Under the pieces are notes generated by a model. The model was not told the DNA's origin. It was given only the letters and a program-made list of their open reading frames with translations, and searched no databases. From Fistulifera solaris (lineage: Eukaryota), in the NCBI GenBank assembly GCA_030295235.1, contig AP026155.1:558001-622000 (forward strand): a stretch of DNA of 64,000 nt, in the 5' to 3' direction. Shown in pieces: positions 45,258 through 60,416 of the stretch (the first letter of the stretch is position 1; the number at the start of each line of letters is the position of its first letter). The translations under genes were made by a program, and so were the position numbers.

Positions 45258-46045
45258 TTACGCGCACGAATACGTCTTTTGTGACAAAATCAATGCCACA
45301 ATCAAACCATACAAGGCCAAAGCTTCACTGAAAATCAACATGATCAGCATGCCGACATACAATTTATTGGCCGCTTCGGTCGGAGACGACGTTCGATCCC
45401 CATCGTCTCCGCCAATTTCGCCCATGCCTTCGTTTTGATTCCAGTACCATTTCCGACCACTTTCGGCTTTTAATCCAAACGCACGGACCCCAACATCACC
45501 AATAATACCAATGGTGCCACCGGCGGCGAGACACGAGAGACCGCAACATAAACCGGCAGCGAGCTGTTGGTCGAGAGGATTTGTGCGTGTATAAGAGGGA
45601 AAAAAATTGTGAATGGAATGAAATGAAATACAGTTCAACACACACCACAACGACTTACATGTACGTAACCCGTGTACGCCGAATAAGTATTACTGGCATC
45701 TTGTGCGGGCGAAACCACACTTTGAGTGATGATGACGGCCACAATTAAACCATAAATACCCAAAACACCCGCCATAACAATCGGCACAATCGTTTTAATA
45801 ATGCCCGCCGGATGATCAATGCCCATGTGGCAAACACCGAGTCCAGCTCGCCATGTTCCCCATGCTGATCCCCAACTACTGAGAATCATACAAGAGGACG
45901 CACCCAGAAATCCGCTGCAATAAAATAAGAGAGTCAGAGCGACCTACGAAAAAGGGAAGAACACTTCGATTTGTAAAGATTCCATTTCTTACAAGGCTGT
46001 GGCCCATGACGGACAAATTTCTTCACCGGCAACAACGGCAACCAT
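45258..46045 (-). CDS. V-type H+-ATPase proteolipid (subunit c) with loop insertion, copy 2
   Basis: Exons 45993-46045, 45659-45914, 45258-45563; [46 protein letters not shown]. Confidence 0.92.
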
Positions 46046-46400
46046 AATTTTTTATTTGCGAGTAAATTGTTTTAGTTTGTCACGTTCTTATGAACGACCA
46101 GTAATAATAGTATTACCACAAGCTCCGAAAGCGATGCTGTTTTGTCTTGCTTTTATGGTGCGGTGTGTGTACTTTTGTATTGTTGCCGTCTACCAGTACC
46201 TTCTTTGTCGGCGACGAGAATCACATCATATTCCGTTGCACAACGCCAGTATAACCTTGCGATATATTACAAAACAAGGTACCTTTTACAGAAATATTAC
46301 ATTGAACTATAGTACAAAGTGTACCTTGGGGGTTGGAAAGCATGCCGTTTTATGAACTGTCTATACAAAGTATTCACGGACAGACGGGTCAGATTTCAGA

Positions 46401-46720
46401 TTGCGAATTGGTCACGAGCAAAAAATAATTGCACGTTACGGATTACGGATGATAGGTTACCACATAGTTGTCATAGTTGTTAGTCGCGACCTAGTAATAA
46501 TTGCGAGTTCCTTAAGTTTCTCGCGAGCGAGTACTTGCAATCATAATCGCGAGTTGGTTGTGATCGAATTGCAAGTTGTTAGCTATTAGTCGGAAGCAAA
46601 TTGCGAGAACGTTATAATCATCGCGAGTTAGTCGCGAGCTTGTCCCGAAGAAGTTATGATAATCGCGATTTACTCGCTAGCAAGTACTCTGTAATAATAA
46701 TCGTGAGTATGTTGCAATCC
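46401..46720. repeat. Degenerate (T/A)(C/T)GCGAG-rich repeat tract
   Basis: About ten variants of tcgcgag/ttgcgag within ~320 bp of non-coding DNA. Confidence 0.55.
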
Positions 46721-46799
46721 GGTAACGACTATTTATTCTCCTTTCCCTGTCAAACCCGTCCCCACGGGACGAATCATAGGCAATAACAGTGATCCATGT

Positions 46800-49010: not shown

Positions 49011-49832
49011 TTAGGAAATCTGTTCTTCACCATCCAGTACGCGACGTCGCTTTTCGTCCGGCTGATCGTCAATGTCGGCTACTTTCTCTGCACCATTATC
49101 TTTAGCAACTTGACGAATCAGCTCTTGTTCTATGATCCAATCGCGCAAAGGTGTTGTTGTTTGATAGCGTTCTTGGGCTTCGGGTGACGACCATTCGACT
49201 TTGAACGACCGCAAGAGAACCACCTGTCCGCTACGTTCACGCCCTACATCATACGCCAGGGCGGAAAACGAATTACACAAATCTTCTTTCGGTTTCCCGG
49301 TCACTACATAGGCCAAACGAAGAGCCCACTGATCAATGATATCACAGACCGTATCCACAGCTTTTTGAGATTCTTCCTCGCGTGCAGACTCCCGTGCCGC
49401 TTGAATGACGCACTGCCGTTCCGGTGCCGTCCACAGGGCATCCGCCATCGTCATACCCGTCCGCCACAACGAGTTCCGGTCTCTCGAATGTTTCCCGAAA
49501 GGACAGGCAATGGTCGACAAATCCAACAATTCATTCGCTAAGGGATTCTGACGCATCTTCAACAAATACTGTAATCCGCCACCAATCGTCAATCCCCGCA
49601 TCGATTCCAGTGCCATGGGACGGGGCTTCTTGGGTTGAAATCGCAGTTGCATTTTGCGCATTTCTTCACTGCGTTGTATTAGCATTTGGAGAATGCCATC
49701 GAGTTGTTCGTCTTGCGCGCGGATGCGTTCGTCTTGGGCCTTGACTTTGGCGTTCAATTGTGCGCATTGCTTTTCAAGTTTTGCAATTTGTTTGTGCAAA
49801 TGCGAGTTGTGCGTATTATTTGTAGGAGGCAT
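49011..49832 (-). CDS. Unknown coiled-coil protein, paralog 1
   Basis: Intact 273-aa ORF, colinear with 50586..51500. Confidence 0.7.
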   Translation of the reverse strand: MPPTNNTHNSHLHKQIAKLEKQCAQLNAKVKAQDERIRAQDEQLDGILQMLIQRSEEMRKMQLRFQPKKPRPMALESMRGLTIGGGLQYLLKMRQNPLANELLDLSTIACPFGKHSRDRNSLWRTGMTMADALWTAPERQCVIQAARESAREEESQKAVDTVCDIIDQWALRLAYVVTGKPKEDLCNSFSALAYDVGRERSGQVVLLRSFKVEWSSPEAQERYQTTTPLRDWIIEQELIRQVAKDNGAEKVADIDDQPDEKRRRVLDGEEQIS

Positions 49833-50585
49833 GCTGTTTGTGAATAATTATATCCTAGACTATAGAGATTTTATTGAAACTACGGAGTATTATTTATCTG
49901 CGTTATTTGCTCTGCAACAAGTTCATGACTGACTAACCAGTCGTGCCCATATTCCACTTACAACTGGGAACCACAGTAAATGATGTTTGGGCGAATCCGG
50001 GGAGAATTACTAGCGCTTTAGAAAAGAGTATACATTTGAAGTAAATTAAATATTTACCTAGCGCTTTTGGAAAGCGTAGTATACCATTTAAGCATGTTAG
50101 TACTTGACATGGACACGTTATGCAGGCTCCGTGCGGACGGTTCCGTCTTCCGTTGCATTACTGTGAAATACGTTCCGCTTTGTTGATAGCTAATCGTTGT
50201 GTGAGAAACTACGTGATGAAGGATGCTACCTGGTACATTTATTTTCTTTTTTTATTCTTGTGTTGCAAATTATGAAGAGAAAAAGATCACTCAATGATGA
50301 TTGACACGAGTCGCGCGGCAAAAGTAAGGGCACTACTTGTTAAAATTGTGGTAGTCGTGTTTAGGTCAAAAGAGCTGAATAGGTAGTAAAGGAATGACGT
50401 AAAGTGATTTAAGTTGACAAAATTGTCAACGAATTGATTTGATGACTAGTAAAGCAACCATCATGTAGTAAGCCTTCGTGTACTGATGCGTAATCACAAC
50501 GATTACATAGTTTGACAAGCATACAAACATGAGGCAACGTGATGCAATTGCTCTCAACCGTGAACCAACATTTAAAAAAAAATGG

Positions 50586-51500
50586 TTACAACGTGCGCTC
50601 GCCGCCATTCAGTACTGCGCTGTCAGCCGCATGGTGATTCTTCACACTCGTCTCCATCGCCTCCAGCCATTTTTGCCGTTTCGTGGCTTCCGCTCGCGCT
50701 TTTTCCTCTCGTTTCCGTGCCTTTTCGGCTCGCTTCTTTTCCAATATCACTTGTTCTTGTCGTTGAATCCATTCGCGCATCGGTGTCGTGTGTTGAAATT
50801 CCGCCACATTCTGAGGATTGCGCTGAAAGGGAGTAATGAATTCGCGAAAATTGAGCGATTTGGTGCCCAATATTTTTCCCGCTCCCGGTATGAAAGGTTT
50901 TCGCACATTCGTATATTGTTGTCCTTCCAAGACGGCCGTCGCGCGGACGACCCACGTGTCGAGATGATCCAAGACACATTGCACCTTCTTGGGAAATTCC
51001 GTGTCGATTGGATCTTGCGCGGCTTGACGTACCATCTCTTGATCGCGGTCGGTCCATAAGGTATCCGCTAACAATAAACACAAGACCCATCGCGAATATC
51101 CTTCTCGCGGATCCATTTCGTACGGACACGTCAACCTCGATAAGGTGGTTTGTTGAGAATTAAACCACTCGAGCAAGGGTCGATCGGGACTTTTGCACAA
51201 ATGCCGTAAAGCGGCTCCGACAGAAATTCCATTCAAACTGGAAGCCGGACGTGGTTCCGTTGGAGGCAACGTTCCGTGTTCGAGTAAATACTTCAACTTG
51301 AACAATTTCTTGTCACGTTCTTTGATCCATTTGTTCTGTTTGTCCAGAATGAGGTGTGTTTCTTGTAGTTGTTCGTGAATGTGCTCCAGTCGTTGCGGTG
51401 TCGTATCGTGATCAACAGGTTCTATTATAGTGAGGTCCTCTTCTTCTTCGTCGTCATGTTCCGCAAGGAAGGGCAATCGGGAGGTTCTCGCTTGAAACAT
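50586..51500 (-). CDS. Unknown coiled-coil protein, paralog 2
   Basis: Intact 304-aa ORF sharing motifs CP(F/Y), AD.LWT, D.W..R and TTP.R.WI..QE with paralog 1. Confidence 0.7.
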   Translation of the reverse strand: MFQARTSRLPFLAEHDDEEEEDLTIIEPVDHDTTPQRLEHIHEQLQETHLILDKQNKWIKERDKKLFKLKYLLEHGTLPPTEPRPASSLNGISVGAALRHLCKSPDRPLLEWFNSQQTTLSRLTCPYEMDPREGYSRWVLCLLLADTLWTDRDQEMVRQAAQDPIDTEFPKKVQCVLDHLDTWVVRATAVLEGQQYTNVRKPFIPGAGKILGTKSLNFREFITPFQRNPQNVAEFQHTTPMREWIQRQEQVILEKKRAEKARKREEKARAEATKRQKWLEAMETSVKNHHAADSAVLNGGERTL

Positions 51501-52010
51501 AACTGTGATATGTTGTAATTAATAAGAGTATCGGTTGATAGGGGTCAGTGTCTCCTGGTGCGAAATATAGGAATAAGCAAAGACCAGAAATACCGTAAGG
51601 ATTTCCAGAAGGATTGAAGGTGAAAGCTGAACAGTACAAGTACTTGTATATATTGCGACGAAAGATGTCATCGCATTGTGTCATCGCATCGTCGCGTTAT
51701 TGTCGCGCTGCGGTGCAAAAGGACAAAAGGACAAAAAAACGCAAAACGCTCGCGGTGTCTTTGCGTCGTCCGTCTATAAACGAAATTGCTTCTGTTGTTT
51801 AGTACCGCAACGACTGATTACAATTTTCATAATGAGACCTGCGCGCACGCCCACGTCCCGCCTTTTGGCGGCATTTTTGCACTCGCTTATTTATGGTCGT
51901 ATTCTTTGCGTTGCATCGCTTTCACTTTCATTCATTTTCCTTCACTTCCTTCCTTTCTCTCATCCGCTCTTGAGAATCAAGTAATAAATAAGTTATTATT
52001 AAGAGGAAAA

Positions 52011-53507
52011 ATGGGAATTAAAGGACTAGCAAAATTGATTTCGGACGAAGCACCCGATGTACGTCAAAACGAACCTGCGATTATCTTTCTTTGTCCTATC
52101 CTATCCTATCCTTTCCTTTCCTTTCCTTACTGACTCTAATTACTCACTACACTCAATTAAATAACTCACATTCTAACTTGCTTGCTTGCTTACTTACTTA
52201 CTTACTTACTAACACGCAGGCCATTCGAGAAGTCGAATTAAAGTCACTCCACGGTCGCAAAATTGCCATTGATGCGAGTATGGCCATTTATCAATTCCTC
52301 ATCGCCGTTCGTAGCAACAACGGCGGACAAGGGCAATCCTTCATGTTAACCAATGCCGAAGGAGAAACGACTAGTCACATTCAAGGCATGTTCAATCGGA
52401 CGATTCGTTACATGACCGAAGGCATTAAACCCGTCTTTGTCTTTGATGGCAAACCCCCGGAAGTCAAAAGTGGCGAATTGTTGAAACGTCGCGAAAAACG
52501 AGAAAAGGCACAACTCGCGTTGCAAGTTGCCACGGAAGAAGGCAACGTCGAAGAACAAGACAAACATTCGAAACGATTGGTCCGGGCGGGACAAAAAGAA
52601 AATGACGATTGTCAAAAATTGTTGCGACTCATGGGTGTCCCCGTCGTGTTGGCACCGTGCGAAGCCGAAGCCCAAGCCGCGGCCTTGGCCAAGGCGGGAC
52701 TAGTGTACGCGGCTGGGACGGAAGATATGGATGCGCTCACGTTTCAAACACCGGTATTGGTTCGGAAAATGACCTTTGCGTCGGCCAGTAAAAGTATGGT
52801 GCAAACGATGAATTATGCGAAAGCTTTGGAAGGGATGAATTTGACGCAGGCACAGTTTGTAGATTTATGGTAGGTTGGATTGCATGTTGTGTGTATTTGC
52901 TGAGATTGAGTTTGGTTCTGCACTGTTTCTCACGGTTTTCACTCTTCGCTCTTTTCTTTTCCTTATTTTAAAGTATCATGTTGGGATGTGATTATTGTGA
53001 CACCATCAAAGGTGTGGGACCTAAAACAGCACTCAAATTGATACGCGAACATGGATGTATTGAAAATATATTGAAACATTTGGATGGAAAGAAGTATGTT
53101 GTTCCTGAGTCGTGGTTGCCTCCTCCGAAAGAAGCAGAAGAATCATCATCGGATCAAGAAAATTCGGTCAGCGACGATCTCCAGCCCATCCCGGCCTATG
53201 TACTCGCACGTCGCATGTTCAATGAACACGAAGTTTTGATGCATGCCGATTTGAAATGGAAGCCGTGTGAACGAGAGGCATTGACGAAGTTTTTGGTGGA
53301 TGAAATGGGATTCAATCCGGATCGGGTCGCGAGTAGTATCGACAAGTTAGAAGCCGCTTACAAAGCCAATAAAGCTCCGCAAACGCGGATGGATGCCTTT
53401 TTGCTGTGCAACCCAAAAAACCGACAGATGCGAGTGTGAAACGCAAAATCGAACCAGTCGTCAAAGGAAAAGGCGCCAAAGGACCGGCGGCCAAAAAGAA
53501 GCGTTAG
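52011..53507 (+). CDS. FEN1: Flap endonuclease 1
   Basis: [67 protein letters not shown] box QTRMDAF(F). Introns 52059-52219 and 52870-52973; base missing at T5 53398-53402. Confidence 0.97.
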
Positions 53508-53696: not shown

Positions 53697-55099
53697 TCAC
53701 AATCCTTCCAAAGACACCATTTTGAATTCCTTTGTTCCGTCTTTTGTTACTCGGTGAGTCAGAATAGGCGGCGGCAACGGCGCAACTTCCGCAGCAATCG
53801 TAAAACTCTGATACAAGCGTTCATAACAAGCTTCCGCCTCTGCCAAAGTCGACTTGTGATAGACTTCAACCAAGACATCGCCTCTACGCACGGCGTCTCC
53901 GACTTGACAGCGAAATCTCATCCCCGCCCACGGATCGACCGATGCACTGGCTTGGGTACGACCGGCACCCAATGCCACGGCGATTAATCCTACTTCAAGT
54001 GCGTTAATGTCGTGCACGTAGCCATCGTAACGTGCGCGTAACGCAAAGGATACGGTATCGACCGGCGCCGTTCGTGTCATGTACGTCTCACAGTCCGTCA
54101 CGGCCGTGACATCACCGCCTTGGGCTTCGACCATTTCTTTGAATTTTGATAAAGCTTGACCACTTTTCAATTGTTGATACGCTGTTACGACGCAAGACTC
54201 GTATGAGGCAGTGGGATCTTGGTGATGCAACATTTCACCGGCTTGATGGACAATCAATTCAATCAATGCTTGACTTTGCCGAACGGTGGCATTGTCTTGC
54301 CATCCCTGTAACAATCGAATGCATTCCCATACTTCGAGCCAGTTTCCCGTCGCCCATCCCAAAGGATGATCCATCCGTGTCAAAAACCCCGTCGTAGGAC
54401 ACAATCCATTCGCTTCTCCTGTCGCAACTAAACTCATGGCCAATTGTTGGGCTTCGTCTCGACTGGGTGAAAAGGCTCCTACACCGTATTTTACATCCAA
54501 AACAAGTGAATTCGGCCGTTCGGCAATTTTCTTGGACATGATACTACCGGTAATCAACGGAATGGACCAGACAGTGCCCGTAACATCCCGTAAGGCATAT
54601 AATTTCGCATCGGCTGGACAGAGCGTGGGGCCCGTTGTATTTATGATGCACCCGACTTTTTGACAAATGCTTTGAAACTCGGCAACATTGAAATCGGTCC
54701 GAAAACCCTGAATACTCTCCAGTTTGTCAATCGTCCCTCCAGTATGCATCAAACTTCGTCCAGCCATCATGGGTACATGAATATTACCGAAACTTGCGAC
54801 TAAGGGAGCTAACACAATCGACACCTTGTCTCCAATCCCTCCCGTCGAATGCTTGTCGACTCGATACGTCAACGAAGAAGACCATTGTAGTTGCTCTCCC
54901 GATTCGACCATGCATCGCGTCAACGTTGCTGTTTCATGGGCCGACAATCCGTGACAACAAACGGCCATGAGCCATGCTGACATTTGATAGTCTTGGACGT
55001 GACCTTGCAGGTATTGTTGCAAAAGGTTTCAATTTCTTCGTCCGTGTGTTCTCGCAATTGAAACCGACGAGTGCGTATGAATTCGACCGGATTGAACAT
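53697..55099 (-). CDS. Thymidine/pyrimidine-nucleoside phosphorylase
   Basis: DYQMSAWLMAV, DKHSTGGIGDK, GR.L.HTGGTIDKLESI, YALRDVT.TV.SIPLI..SIMSKK, LDVK.G.GAF; frameshift at A4 55021-55024. Confidence 0.93.
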
Positions 55100-55870
55100 T
55101 GTGACGATTGTGATGCGGAAAAAATAATGTATAGAAAGGGAAGAAATCGATAAAAAAACAAAGAGATATTGCAAGTGGGGCAGCGTAATGGCAGCACTTT
55201 GTGGCGTCACGTTTTCTTCTCTCAATGCGTGAGGGAATGAAAGGAAAGCAAGGGATCAAAGGAACAAGAAAGAATCGAATAGCAGCGTGACAACAATATG
55301 ATTGATGATGGGATTTACAAGTACCAGGTATTTAGTTGTGGCAAATGTTGTTTTGTCGCTATCTTTTGTTTTTTTGCGGACGAGGGCGGGCTGGCGTGCG
55401 GCGGCGAGCGCGGTTATGAATATCATCGTGAATGATCATGAATCACGAGTCGTCAGAACTGAGGCCCCATGCGAACAAGGGGAGTCAGAATTCGAATTCA
55501 AGCGACACACATGTTCGAAAGTCAGCATCAATTGGTGTTTGCATCACAAATGAGTTCCGTTCTGCATTATCTTGGCAATGCAGATCTCAGCGAATCGTTT
55601 TTCGAAGTGACAACTGGTATAACCTTGAGGTGTTGACGACCTTTTTCCGCGACTGCGGAGGGCGTGAGTCATGAATGCATGCGCGAGCGCGAATGAAGAA
55701 GGAACGCAGGTCCCGTACGTCCGTCGAACGTCGAACGCAAACAAAATGCCACCGCTCCGCGTGTTTTGGGTGTTGCCCTTTCTATTACTACTCCGTACTC
55801 CGTATTATTTTTTTTACTTTCTATGTTCCCTATTCCTTTACTTCATTCATTCTAAAAAGCCCATAATAAC

Positions 55871-58108
55871 ATGTCGTCGTCGTCTTCGGTGGCAGCTCTC
55901 TTTGTCTTTCGCACTCTCATGGAACAATACGGACTCAATAAAGAAGCCGATCCGTTTCACTGGGAAGCCAAATGTTTCGGTTTGCCCATCTTGAAAGACG
56001 ATTTGGATGTCTTGGTGCGATCGATTGCCTTTTCGTACGAAGGACATTTGTTCGAACGAACCGATAAGAGTACGAATTACTATCAATATCGTTGTATCGG
56101 TTGTTGTCAAGAAGTCAGAAGCAACGACACGGAAGAACCCGAACGACCCTTTTCGTTGTATTTCAAACAACGCAAGCATGATCCTCGTTACTTTGATATC
56201 TGCCCTTCCAAATGCCATTTTCGTCACAATCATCACAATCATCAACCGACATATATTGTTCCAGAAAAATACAAGGGCGGAATGCTGGAAATTTACAAAA
56301 ATTCACCCATTCTGTTACACTATTTCCAACAACTTTTTCAAGGCAACGAACCCTCGAAAGAAGCTCGATCGTACAAAACGGCCACGGCGTTTCTCGCCAC
56401 CACGAAGTTAGCTCAAGCCGCCATGTCGTCTTCGACGTATTCGCGACTCTATCAATATTTTTATCAACTTTATCAACAAGAACAACACAATTATCATTCA
56501 TTGTTGCGACCTTATTTGTTGCAGTACATTGCTCGGAATCGGACGGCCAATGTTTTTCTACAAGCCGATACGGAAGGTTCCATATATCGTATGTTTCTCT
56601 CGGTGCCCGAGGTGGCGCAATTGGTCGAAACGGTCGGTGTGAATGGATTGTTTATCGATACCGTGACGTCCACAAAGAAGGATTATCACGGGACTTTACT
56701 TTATGTCATGGCTTTAACCGGTCAAGCCGAATGGATATCCTTGGCAGCCGCTTGGTGTCCTCAAGACAATGCCGCGGGGCTACTCTTTATCGTGCAAATG
56801 TTGGCGGCTTCCGGAATATCGTTCTCAAAAACACCCGTCTATACGAGTCGTCAGGGGGCCTTCTTGAGTGCCGTGACGGTCGCGCAGCGCGATTTTCAAA
56901 TCGAAGTGTCTCTCAAATACACCATCGATCTACTTCTGACGCAAATTATTCGACATTTTTCCATTGACGCGAATGATCCACGTCTTCCCGAAATTCAACA
57001 ACACATCCATGCGTTGCAGGCGGCACCGACCATTGCCTCCTTTCTCGTGGCGTGTGAGAAATTTCGAAACATGGTCCCGGAAAGAGCGACTCCTGTCTTA
57101 AAGTTTATTATGCGAAACATTCATCCTCGTCATTGGACGGTCTTTGGGAACAATGCTCAAATCTCGGATGAAGAATGGGCGCCGGACTATTTTTATTGTC
57201 TGGGACGGTACATGGGCATCACGGATCACTGGACCGTCGTGCAACGTGAGTTTCTCCACGATCCGGTGCCCTTGGGTCAAAAATTTCCGCTCATGGGGTT
57301 TTTGCAATCGAATCGTGCGGCATCGACGGCCGAGTGGTTCCAGCAACAACAAGTCCGGAATGGCGCACCACCTGATGCCGCGCATCACTTTCTGACTGTA
57401 TCGGCGGCCGCAATCACACACTATCAGCACCAAATAGCCGTCATGCATTCCAGAAAAATTCCGTGTACGGATGTTGCCGCCAAACTCCTCGTCGAACCCA
57501 CCCGTGGACGGGAAAGCTGCAGTGTGCCGACGGCGCATCCTCCCAATGTACCCATCCATATCACGGATACTACCCAAGGCTTTCAACGCATGAATATTGT
57601 CCGCCACAATACAACGGATACTACCCGAACTTATACCTGCACGTGTTACCTTTTTAGCAACTATGGGGTACCATGCTGTCATATTCTGGCGGTTCGAAAA
57701 GCTCAGAAGAAAAGCGATCACGATGTTCCAAAACTGCTACCCAAATGGGGCAGCGTAGAAGCCATCACAAACTATTTGACGCGCGGGCGACCCTCCCACC
57801 AACCGTATGCTATGAAACTCTCTTGTTGGTCCGATATACGAGTTAAAACGGACGATGATGTCCTGAAACCAGCTCCTGTCTACATATTGAACCCACCGAC
57901 TGAGAACTTGACCGACTCATTATCAAGCAGCAGTCGAAAACTGCCGAGTTCCGCTCAACCCCCTAAAACGAAGAAAGCCCGCACGACACAGACGTCGGAA
58001 ACAAATTCAGATGAGGTTCCAAATAACTCGGAAGAGAGCAGCGGTCGTTCGACGACATTGTTGGCGGTCGAGTACTGGTGGCGCATGTCGCGGTTCCCGA
58101 CATTCTGA
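55871..58108 (+). CDS. Mutator (MULE) transposase-derived protein with SWIM zinc finger and degenerate catalytic core
   Basis: N-terminal C-x2-C...HNH motif; MULE-like block IYRMFL...LFIDT......YHGTLL...; SWIM CTCYLFSNYGVPCCHILAV. The 3' end may extend toward 58550. Confidence 0.7.
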   Translation: MSSSSSVAALFVFRTLMEQYGLNKEADPFHWEAKCFGLPILKDDLDVLVRSIAFSYEGHLFERTDKSTNYYQYRCIGCCQEVRSNDTEEPERPFSLYFKQRKHDPRYFDICPSKCHFRHNHHNHQPTYIVPEKYKGGMLEIYKNSPILLHYFQQLFQGNEPSKEARSYKTATAFLATTKLAQAAMSSSTYSRLYQYFYQLYQQEQHNYHSLLRPYLLQYIARNRTANVFLQADTEGSIYRMFLSVPEVAQLVETVGVNGLFIDTVTSTKKDYHGTLLYVMALTGQAEWISLAAAWCPQDNAAGLLFIVQMLAASGISFSKTPVYTSRQGAFLSAVTVAQRDFQIEVSLKYTIDLLLTQIIRHFSIDANDPRLPEIQQHIHALQAAPTIASFLVACEKFRNMVPERATPVLKFIMRNIHPRHWTVFGNNAQISDEEWAPDYFYCLGRYMGITDHWTVVQREFLHDPVPLGQKFPLMGFLQSNRAASTAEWFQQQQVRNGAPPDAAHHFLTVSAAAITHYQHQIAVMHSRKIPCTDVAAKLLVEPTRGRESCSVPTAHPPNVPIHITDTTQGFQRMNIVRHNTTDTTRTYTCTCYLFSNYGVPCCHILAVRKAQKKSDHDVPKLLPKWGSVEAITNYLTRGRPSHQPYAMKLSCWSDIRVKTDDDVLKPAPVYILNPPTENLTDSLSSSSRKLPSSAQPPKTKKARTTQTSETNSDEVPNNSEESSGRSTTLLAVEYWWRMSRFPTF

Positions 58109-59016
58109 TGCGGCATGGCATCCAATGGAAGGTCGACGAGAATGCCGGCGGCGAATTTTCTCGACGGGCCGACGAGTCTCCGTCTCCTCCTCCTCAGCAA
58201 GTGAAAAGCAAGAAAAAGGGAGTCGAGACGGGAGGACGTGACTGCCCGAAAAAAGCGAAGCTGTTTGGTTTCTAGAAGAGATGGTACACCGTGAAGTTGT
58301 CATTTCCCATACTAACACGAGGCAAATTGACTCGGCGACTCATCAAGCAGTGCTCCGCACCACAAGACAAGAAGAAGCACCCGATGACTCTCTGGCTCGT
58401 GCACTGTCATTTTCGCAAAGGCTTGTAGACATTGGAGTCGAGCAATCTGAATTGGACGATGCTGCAGTTGCTCATGAAGCAGACTTGAGTTCCAAGGATG
58501 GAGGCAGCCTCACAGTTGAAACAAGGGAAGTGGTGGACATGATGATCTAGAGTGAAAGGATAGGCTTTTAATTCCGTTCTGTGCGAATGATCTGCCGCTT
58601 AATCCAAACATAAGCTTGGAAGACAGTGAAACGTGGACCCACATTACACAAGTGCATAGTGCTGTACAACTGCAAGCTTAAGCAGATCAATAAAAAGAAT
58701 ACTGTCTTCGCTGTCGATCGTCTCCTTGTACATTTCGGAAACGGAACGACTCCAGCGGCTTATGGCTACCGGTACTTAGATTATCATTTATTGTCAGTAG
58801 ACTACTTTAACAGTTACACATAGGTCGATTGTTGAATTTCCTCTCTTTTAAATTATGCGGCTGGGCTCATTAGCTGATTACCCAGCAATATGATTTTGAG
58901 CGCAGGTGATCTTGGAACGTCCCCGCATGCAATAATCAATTGTTCTCGATGGATACAAAATGTGAACTTCATCAAGCTATTACAGCATTCGTCATTTAGA
59001 TTATGAATTGTCGCTT

Positions 59017-60416
59017 TCAGGCATCACGTGGGGCTTCTTCGTTAAGATTCCCAGTTCCTTCTCCTCCATCTTCGGCACTGTGGCTGTCGAGCTGTTCCGT
59101 CGCAGAAGCTTGCAAACTAGCCTCAATGGCCATGGCCAACTGCTCTTCTTCCGTCAATCCGGTCATGAACAAATCACTCGACGTTGACAATAAACCCAAA
59201 GATTGACGTTCTTCCATACTCAACGACATGGTTGCCTCCAGTAAGGTAGCAACATCCGATCCATTTCGATCCTGATCCAAAGCACTCAAAATTCGATTCC
59301 AATCACGTCGTGCCGAACCTCCTCCGAGTCGTAACACGCGTGTATTCTCATTCGTATTATTTCGATTCATCAAACTATTCCGATGATGCTCCAATTCATT
59401 TTGAAGCCACCGTTCTTCTTCTTCCATCCGCAATCGCAACGCCAAGGGATGTTTGTTTTGGGCTTGCATTTCGGCTTCGAGTTGGCGGCGTTCGGAAGCC
59501 GACAGTGCCAAGGCTTCCAATGGGGGCGACTCGCGTCCTTCGGATGAAATGCTTTCAGATCGTGCTTTCATCAACAAGAAACGGGAATCTTGTTCGAGTG
59601 ATGCACCAAAGATATTGGTGGGAACGGAAGTACTGCTGTGGCCGGACGAGGTCATGCCCGAAATGTAAGCATCGCTGGTGCTGTGCGCCGAAGATGCCGA
59701 AAGAGTCTCTTCGGCTAGTGGTTGGGGACAATTCTCATCGTGAGGTGGTTCGTATCCTTCTGGTGGTTGTTGGTTTTCAATCGCTCGTTCGGGGTCATTG
59801 CGTATCCGGATCCGTTCTTCTTCGACCGCACGTTGTTGCAGTTCATCATGAGTGAGACCTTGTTTGATCGATACGACCAATTTCGGATTGTTACAAAACG
59901 GACAGACAGATTTTTCTCGTTGTGGGTGCACTTGCAGATAACATTCCGTACACAAGACGGCTTGACAACATTTGGTGACATTGACTTGTCCGTAATTCAA
60001 AAAAACAAATGGGGCATTCATGGTCCGATTCTTTCGTTCTTCTCTCAGTTCCTTTCTGTCGCGCCGCTAATTTTCCGTCTCCGATTAATCGACGAATCAC
60101 TTTATCTTCCCAGTGACAAGATGGATATAATCTGTTGTAAAACGACGATTATGCGAACACTTGTGTGAGAGAAGAAGGATGTATCACGGGAAGGAAAGAA
60201 AATGTATCTACTTGATTGATACAAACAAACGTTCTCTCTTATTCCTCAAGCAAATAGTAGCCAGAATCTTTTAACAAGGTCTTCTTTTCGTCCTAGAGAA
60301 ACTTACCCACTCGGTCGGCATCGTTCATCCAATTCAAGTCGAGTTAAACCGAGTCCATTTGATTGCCGTAATCGTCCTCCTATTCTCCCGCTCTCCTGTG
60401 ATGCTTTATTTCCCAT
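59017..60416 (-). CDS. Sip5/GW2/DA2-like RING E3 ligase with MGNxxS N-terminus and C-terminal UIM
   Basis: CRPSG|LY..C.W..K.IRRLI..GKLA; ECPICF(L)NY..VN.TKCC...LCTECY...CPFC; TEEEQLAMAIEASL. Intron 60132-60306; extra base at A7 59999-60005. Confidence 0.85.

Follow-up and report, generated by a model that had tools for sequence, protein, structure and literature searches.

A transposase-derived gene of the Mutator superfamily in Fistulifera solaris has lost its catalytic centre and is kept under purifying selection

We asked whether a transposase-like gene in the diatom Fistulifera solaris is the remnant of a mobile element or a gene that now serves its host. The gene lies in a stretch of 64,000 nucleotides (hereafter the window), and the original prediction, made from the DNA alone, was that it encodes a domesticated Mutator (MULE) transposase with a decayed catalytic core but an intact reading frame and intact zinc fingers. 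Plants, animals, fungi and ciliates all offer well-known cases of transposase domestication.

As assembled, the window holds a frame that starts at 55871 and stays open for 745 codons, and this was read at first as an uninterrupted 745-aa ORF. The open frame is there, but the true protein has 892 aa, and the difference is due to three single-base errors. Aligned to the homoeologous copy, the window is short of one base near 58031-58036 and carries one extra base near 58230 and another near 58249-58256, and the contigs of run X1 carry the identical three corrections to the window frame. The database protein GAX22217.1 (FisN_19Lh282, Fistulifera solaris, 892 aa), which is annotated as a hypothetical SWIM-domain protein and nothing more, agrees by inspection with the window translation to about residue 720. 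Because GAX22217.1, the homoeolog and the X1 contigs all continue through to a stop at 58550, the end of the gene at 745 aa is the product of single-base assembly errors. An intron near 58100 was ruled out, as the three single-base differences account for the frame breaks; a programmed frameshift or a genuine truncation of the window copy was ruled out by the read-through in GAX22217.1. The coordinates of the gene, its parts and its neighbours are collected in Table 1.

In a search of the diatom's own genome, the homoeolog was found on contig C38 as an open frame of 899 codons, 93% identical over a 420-aa query; it corresponds to GAX19696.1 (FisN_19Hh282, 894 aa). A third version (P0005/P0007) is about 92% identical to the gene and is a mosaic of these two: its first half resembles the H copy, and parts of its second half resemble the L copy. 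We refer to the window copy, the homoeolog and this mosaic as the three versions of the gene.

Table 1. Positions in the window of the transposase-derived gene, its motifs and domains, and the flanking regions
Feature	Position	Strand	Evidence or remark
Pyrimidine-nucleoside (thymidine) phosphorylase-like neighbour	53697..55028	-	PF00591, PF07831, PF02885; also beside the homoeolog
Upstream intergenic region, head-to-head with the thymidine-phosphorylase-like gene	55029..55870	.	No TIR or TSD
Dead MULE transposase-derivative gene, single exon, 892 aa	55871..58550	+	GAX22217.1 (FisN_19Lh282), homoeolog, run X1
N-terminal helix and beta-sheet zinc domain (C75, C78, H119, H124)	55895..56245	+	Ligands in relatives, model strands
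First catalytic Asp, D263, retained	56657..56659	+	D in 117/121 relatives; on model strand 256-266
Ser (S326) in place of the second catalytic Asp	56846..56848	+	D in 115/125 relatives; Ser in all three versions
CxxH replaced by TIDL (T351, L354)	56921..56932	+	C in 115/120 and H in 115/119 relatives; replaced in 3/3 versions
Insertion-domain Trp, W422, retained	57134..57136	+	90% of 99 relatives have W, as do 3/3 versions
Catalytic Glu replaced by Ala (A484), Glu in the homoeolog	57320..57322	+	E in 51/55 relatives; GCA versus GAA
SWIM zinc finger (C590, C592, C602, H604), intact	57638..57682	+	PF04434, 21.8 bits; ligands in 27-30/30 relatives
Basic cluster KTKKAR, possible nuclear localisation signal	57965..57982	+	Regular-expression match in 3/3 versions
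C-terminal tail, masked by the assembly errors	58031..58550	+	First 90 aa match P0003 past its CCHC knuckle
Downstream intergenic region	58551..59016	.	No TIR or TSD
RING-like/UIM-like protein gene neighbour	59017..60066	-	Weak, sub-cut-off Pfam matches; also beside the homoeolog

The relatives of the gene come from a profile search of 1.84 billion representative proteins, which returned 421 proteins at E <= 0.001; the best 150 of these were examined. Conservation was counted over 151 relatives outside the gene's own cluster (the best 150 hits plus P0003 and P0004), each count covering those relatives that span the column in question. The nearest relative, P0003, is an intact transposase of 1429 aa with a SWIM finger, a CCHC knuckle and an Ulp1 protease, and is 43% identical to the gene. 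A match to the Pfam MULE model (PF10551) had been suggested as a check on the predicted MULE architecture, but the gene gave none at E up to 1, SWIM being its only Pfam match. P0003 has no PF10551 match either, which shows that this model is insensitive to the clade. P0004, to which the gene is 28% identical, does match PF10551 (E 8e-5). What upholds the assignment to the MULEs is instead the alignment to relatives and the modelled structure.

For the fold we used an AlphaFold model of residues 1-675, built with an alignment of 48 sequences (pLDDT 90, pTM 0.85). Its best structural match is ISCth4, an IS256-family member of the Mutator superfamily (PDB 6xgx, 6xg8, 6xgw; Foldseek E 2e-5; Z 12.3, rmsd 5.2, 246 residues aligned), and the next is Hermes (Z 9.8). 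ISCth4 differs from the gene in being bacterial and active, in lacking SWIM and in being only about 10% identical. No meaningful match came from searching the PDB by sequence. Because the model leans on an alignment of intact relatives, it supports the residue mapping more than it proves a retained fold. Judged from alignment and model, the gene is a descendant of the MULE transposase lineage, with its predicted RNase-H DDE fold and insertion domain.

The alignment also settles which catalytic residues are left. The four motifs singled out by eye (LFIDT, VYTSRQG, LKYTIDLL and SNRAAS) are all present and align exactly with the first Asp, the second Asp, CxxH and the Glu of intact relatives. As predicted, D263 in LFIDT is kept, the second Asp reads Ser and CxxH has been replaced, and the latter two lesions are common to all three versions. 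The predicted loss of the Glu was right for only part of the set: Ala stands there in the window copy and the third version, but the homoeolog keeps the Glu (SNRAES), so that the triad reads D, S, A in the window copy and D, S, E in the homoeolog. An intact DDE, named at the outset as one of the results that would count against domestication, was not seen in the alignment to relatives. The window copy further carries a one-codon insertion just after S326. At 51 columns, 75% or more of the relatives agree, and the three versions all keep 37 of these. The 14 changed columns comprise three that differ in P0003 too, two that are kept in some versions, three with mild changes (S115C, E299D, F324Y) and six in the active site, and the radical losses are clustered at positions 326, 351, 354, 357, 358 and 484.

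In work reported on the active transposase Muta1, Ala at D214, D283, E419 or H307 abolishes or nearly abolishes transposition (PMC5225508). Since the second Asp and the His of CxxH are lost here, and the equivalent D283 and H307 changes kill transposition by Muta1, it appears very unlikely that this protein transposes. A different use of the core would be a residual nuclease or strand-transfer activity in the service of the host, for which there is a protist precedent. The macronuclear MULE genes of Oxytricha are described as lacking TIRs and are read as domesticated; some of them keep the DDE, and their proteins have been proposed to cut DNA during genome rearrangement (PMC3558436). The diatom gene likewise is a protist MULE gene without TIRs, but it is catalytically dead, whereas some of those in Oxytricha are not. 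The retention of D263 and W422 in all versions, and of the Glu in the homoeolog, could be taken as a sign of such an activity, yet the second Asp and the CxxH His are gone from every version and the Glu from two of three, and each of these residues is reported as essential in Muta1 (PMC5225508); we find a residual nuclease scarcely credible.

How widely is this dead gene distributed? A FastTree tree was built from the 53 of 156 sequences that cover at least 75% of 316 core columns, with a midpoint root. The three versions form a clade (support 1.000) that is sister to P0003 (0.995), and their stem branch is 0.79, versus 0.24 for P0003; such a long stem is in keeping with a burst of changes when the gene was domesticated. 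Among the best 150 of 421 hits, the other 149 include none with the same dead signature. A few, such as P0017 and P0031, have scattered changes, and both of these are placed elsewhere in the tree. P0024, an N-terminal fragment that is 43% identical, cannot be classed as dead or intact. A search of metagenome contigs gave 28 pattern matches, of which none was confirmed as an ortholog, and word-index protein searches returned three proteins only, with none among shorter proteins. The proposed check for syntenic orthologs in related diatoms was thus answered in part, with a syntenic homoeolog and a third version, but nothing further in the best 150 of 421 hits or the metagenome contigs. From those 150 hits, the domestication looks confined to Fistulifera and recent.

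The setting of the gene bears on whether it still behaves as part of an element. A DNA search of the genome with the gene and both flanks found two loci only, in the window and on C38. About 19 kb around the two loci is collinear, with the same neighbours in both subgenomes; the fixed position therefore holds in two of the two subgenomes compared. Neither TIRs, nor a combined TSD and TIR arrangement, nor the TIRs of other elements were found in the flanks of either homoeolog, and the same TSD-TIR test recovered the pair in 3/3 control elements. The earlier remark that no terminal inverted repeats were to be seen is borne out and extends to TSDs, and the suggested copy-number check turned up two syntenic copies rather than a set of near-identical, TIR-bearing ones. 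Because non-TIR MULEs are on record (PMC6446971), the absence of TIRs is not decisive by itself.

Intact elements in the same genome provide a comparison. Family A is a young Mutator element of 5.86 kb that has 9-bp TSDs and perfect TIRs of 130 bp. Five of five copies retrieved are 99% identical to one another, and the family numbers at least 20 elements (40/40 scored TIR matches). Family B is represented by one Mutator element of 4.4 kb with 260-bp TIRs and no evident TSD. Both families retain the catalytic motifs and an Ulp1-like region, and are 25-33% identical to the gene, N-terminal domain included. From the N-terminus to SWIM, P0003 and both families share the architecture of the gene. 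They keep D, D, E, CxxH and Ulp1, and families A and B their TIRs as well, whereas the gene is without the second Asp, CxxH, CCHC, Ulp1, TIR and TSD. The family from which the gene itself descends yielded no element in a search of the genome. A helper role in the transposition of families A and B was ruled out, as the catalytic centre is gone.

The presence of related young elements raises the possibility that the gene is a host brake on them, with a dead transposase that would occupy TIRs or poison the transposase complexes of active families. Such a role would suit a protein that is catalytically dead yet appears, from alignment and model, to have kept its DNA-binding surface and possible dimer surfaces. 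However, the identity to families A and B is low, in the N-terminal domain too, and they sit on other branches of the tree (shown for family B). Moreover, the parent family of the gene was not found in the genome, and family A, with its copies carrying identical TIRs, is not being held in check. We consider the brake quite unlikely.

Selection was measured on the homoeolog pair. Over 883 codons, dS is 0.24, dN is 0.046 and dN/dS is 0.19 (bootstrap 0.14-0.25), a ratio that comes from one sequence pair and a simple counting method, the mosaic third version not being an independent lineage. By region, dN/dS is 0.17 in the N-terminus, 0.12 in the helical region, 0.18 in the dead core, 0.13 in the SWIM region and 0.33 in the tail; seven neighbouring genes have values of 0.01-0.19, several of them close to that of the whole gene. 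The departure from neutrality is strong overall (Fisher p 9e-31) and in each of the five regions (p < 1e-4). The dN/dS check that had been proposed thus points to purifying selection along the whole gene. The real coding indels are all multiples of three (5/5), whereas flank indels are not so limited, and the frame was still open in 0/2000 neutral simulations. Composition gives weak support in the same direction: the gene (GC 0.48, CpG o/e 1.31-1.35) resembles host genes, its neighbours having CpG o/e of 1.18-1.39, and not the transposase regions of the young elements (GC 0.45, CpG o/e 0.87-0.95). Because both copies, which share one site, show the same loss of the second Asp and CxxH, this selection post-dates the loss of mobility.

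These data bear most directly on the possibility that the gene is a functionless relic of a dead transposon whose frame has survived by chance. No function has been described for it, and its orthologs amount to the three versions in the best 150 of 421 hits, as would be expected of a relic. But a dN/dS this low at this dS, after a shared catalytic loss, together with indels that only ever preserve the frame and a GC and CpG content like that of host genes, makes a chance survival highly unlikely. The gene is very probably a domesticated, catalytically dead MULE gene kept under purifying selection; the residue mapping, the two syntenic copies, the absence of TIRs and TSDs, the purifying selection and the in-frame indels all speak for domestication as originally proposed.

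What, then, has been kept? The N-terminal 125 aa are 95-100% identical among the three versions, and the zinc ligands C75, C78, H119 and H124 are intact in the gene. In relatives these positions are conserved in 21/23, 22/22, 16/23 and 13/28 sequences, respectively, which makes C75, C78 and H119 conserved ligands and H124 probably one. The C-x2-C...HNH motif noted at first is therefore kept in its Cys pair, in H119 and probably in H124, but HNH as such is not conserved, the homoeolog having HTH. MULE N-terminal domains have been described as WRKY-GCM1-type DNA-binding zinc fingers (PMC1702500). The modelled strands of this region (61-63, 70-75, 95-100 and 107-110) and its ligands fit a WRKY-GCM1 sheet, which has four strands and takes two Cys and two His or Cys as ligands, although fold searches scarcely covered it and the domain folded alone without an alignment gave a model too poor to use (pLDDT 45). 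A WRKY-GCM1-type DNA-binding domain is the probable assignment. Identity to the nearest intact relative is 27% in the zinc sheet, versus 47% in the dead core and 52% in the insertion domain.

The SWIM finger, also predicted to be retained, matches its Pfam model at residues 588-608 with 21.8 bits against a cut-off of 19.6, and its four ligands are intact. The basic cluster KTKKAR stands C-terminal to it. Further on, the tail is 31% identical to P0003 over 90 aa (E 4e-11), in a match that starts right after the P0003 CCHC knuckle; neither this knuckle nor the Ulp1 protease of P0003 was found in the gene. As the tail still matches P0003 just past the knuckle, the knuckle was removed by an internal deletion.

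The history that we consider very probable is as follows. The ancestor was a Mutator element from the MULE-SWIM-CCHC-Ulp1 lineage of diatoms, and it landed between the thymidine-phosphorylase gene and the RING gene when the two parental genomes of this hybrid diatom had not yet separated. The element then shed its TIRs, CCHC knuckle, Ulp1 protease and catalytic centre, and the host has retained the remainder under purifying selection. In the present protein, DNA may be read by the N-terminal zinc domain, with the dead RNase-H core and the insertion domain serving as a scaffold and with partners contacted through SWIM and the tail, a mode of action proposed for MUSTANG and demonstrated for FAR1/FHY3.

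By analogy with known MULE-derived proteins, we lean slightly towards a product that is a nuclear, probably dimeric, sequence-specific DNA-binding regulator, because the N-terminus is nearly invariant among the versions, the zinc ligands and the basic cluster are kept, and a dimer was modelled. In that two-copy model, of residues 182-668, the score was 0.50 versus 0.29 for the best control (pLDDT at least 67), and the separate runs (0.67, 0.00 and 0.50) agree in at least 0% of contacts. The mark for a dimer was reached by 21/30 solved pairs and 0/23 single chains from microbes, and by 17/29 and 0/30, respectively, from eukaryotes. The homodimer signal is weak and marginal, and its source may be a resemblance to transposases of solved structure. 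Alternatively, the protein could be a domesticated scaffold, or an adaptor of the chromatin or ubiquitin system, that works through SWIM and the dead core and is not a sequence-specific DNA binder. Purifying selection acts on the core, the insertion domain and the SWIM region (0.18, 0.13), all of which are nearer than the zinc sheet to the intact relative, and feature neighbours of the gene include clusters with ZSWIM1-3 RNaseH-like domains. However, the N-terminal domain and its zinc ligands are equally constrained (dN/dS 0.17; 95-100% identity), and we regard this alternative as unlikely.

As to the sequencing runs, X1 behaves as DNA, its coverage being even across genic and intergenic sequence. 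In X2 and X3 some neighbour genes only are covered; both runs have no contig on the gene and none over most of the thymidine-phosphorylase gene, and are uninformative on expression. No run on record as RNA contains the gene. The identifiers FisN_19Lh282 and FisN_19Hh282 are absent from the supplements of PMC5935921, where another identifier system is used, and no per-gene expression table was found.

The regulator reading was modelled from the start on the plant proteins FAR1/FHY3 and MUSTANG. FAR1 and FHY3 are reported as tested transcription factors of the MULE-derived kind, host proteins with an N-terminal DNA-binding domain, a transposase core and SWIM (PMC8616336). The diatom gene has this layout but no FAR1 Pfam domain, and is a separate domestication whose regulatory role is drawn by analogy. 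The MUSTANG (MUG) genes of flowering plants are described as keeping their zinc ligands, with the DDE mutated in most and dN/dS of 0.10-0.12, and DNA-binding regulation is their proposed function (PMC3435246). Like them, the gene is MULE-derived, has a single exon that encodes an N-terminal zinc domain, a MULE core and SWIM, has lost its termini and is collinear. It differs in having arisen independently from the diatom MULE-Ulp1 lineage, in comprising three close versions rather than an angiosperm-wide family, in lacking a MuDR (PF03108) or MULE Pfam match and in being known here from sequence alone. Because there is no FAR1 or MuDR Pfam match and the nearest relatives are intact diatom-type transposases, the gene falls outside the FAR1/FHY3 and MUSTANG families and is an independent domestication. 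The original prediction holds as to domestication, and the regulatory role that it proposed would be shared with these families by analogy.

In the available text of a MULE survey, a diatom clade is listed, and the domesticated cases mentioned are confined to plants and a single clade of invertebrates (PMC6446971). Neither MULE nor Mutator occurs in the main text of the species' chromosome preprint (10.1101/2021.11.10.468027). No domesticated diatom MULE was found in the literature searched by title and start of abstract, a scope outside which most subscription journals fall. The gene is apparently a young and undescribed domesticated MULE. It is an unusually clean case, as the hybrid genome comes with an ortholog pair of its own and with young intact elements that serve as controls. 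Being apparently young, the gene would indicate what a transposase sheds at the outset (catalytic centre, CCHC knuckle and Ulp1) and what it keeps. A bolder reading, to which we give slightly less than even credence, is that a Mutator transposase of a diatom gave rise to a transcription factor recently and at the level of the genus, independently of FAR1/FHY3 and MUSTANG and with a P0003-type ancestor still extant. If this is true, the gene would represent a convergent, early-stage domestication that is directly testable, and its product may regulate host genes or active Mutator elements.

The third version of the main gene, represented by P0005 and P0007, is 98-100% like the H homoeolog over residues 9-225 and is nearer to the L copy than to H in the SWIM region. 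The dS between H and L is itself uneven along the gene, ranging from 0.15 to 0.43. Taken together, these sequence patterns suggest homoeologous exchange or a different hybrid. A further protein, P0024, is an N-terminal fragment of 193 aa that shares 43% identity with the main gene's protein and 48% with P0003, the main gene's nearest intact transposase relative; P0024 could be a close active relative or a further ortholog.

When the genome was searched at the DNA level, the subgenome-specific stretch of the window turned up only once; it carries degenerate TCGCGA-type short repeats at 46400-46720. The two adjacent ORFs, neither of which matched a Pfam family at cut-off, both occur in the homoeologous region. 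Each has an N-terminal coiled coil, and by eye they have motifs in common; they look like tandem paralogs.

Features of the window and Mutator elements of the F. solaris genome (G000)
Feature	Location	Description
Subgenome-specific stretch	window 46040-46760	~700 bp, confined to the window's subgenome
Adjacent ORF pair	window 49011-49847 and 50586-51518	- strand
Family A Mutator element	e.g. L025:2977-8842 (C17); also L026, L027, L028, L029	
Family B Mutator element	L024:2092-6521 (C2)	single, 4.4 kb

The family A element, present in at least 20 copies in this genome, is very young: it is 5.86 kb long, with perfect 130-bp TIRs, 9-bp TSDs and an Ulp1-like region. Two family A TIR pairs, on C1 and C8, are spaced just ~3.2 kb apart and are probably deletion derivatives. 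The family B element, whose protein is GAX20913.1, has 260-bp TIRs, an Ulp1-like region, and both D-D-E and CxxH intact; no TSD was evident.

Frameshifts in family A vary from copy to copy and look like assembly errors. Within the window, single-base indel differences from sequencing run X1 occur at 53397, 58031, 58230, 58249 and 60000, and we therefore conclude that the F. solaris assembly contains frameshift errors. Given these errors, seemingly broken genes in this assembly call for checking.
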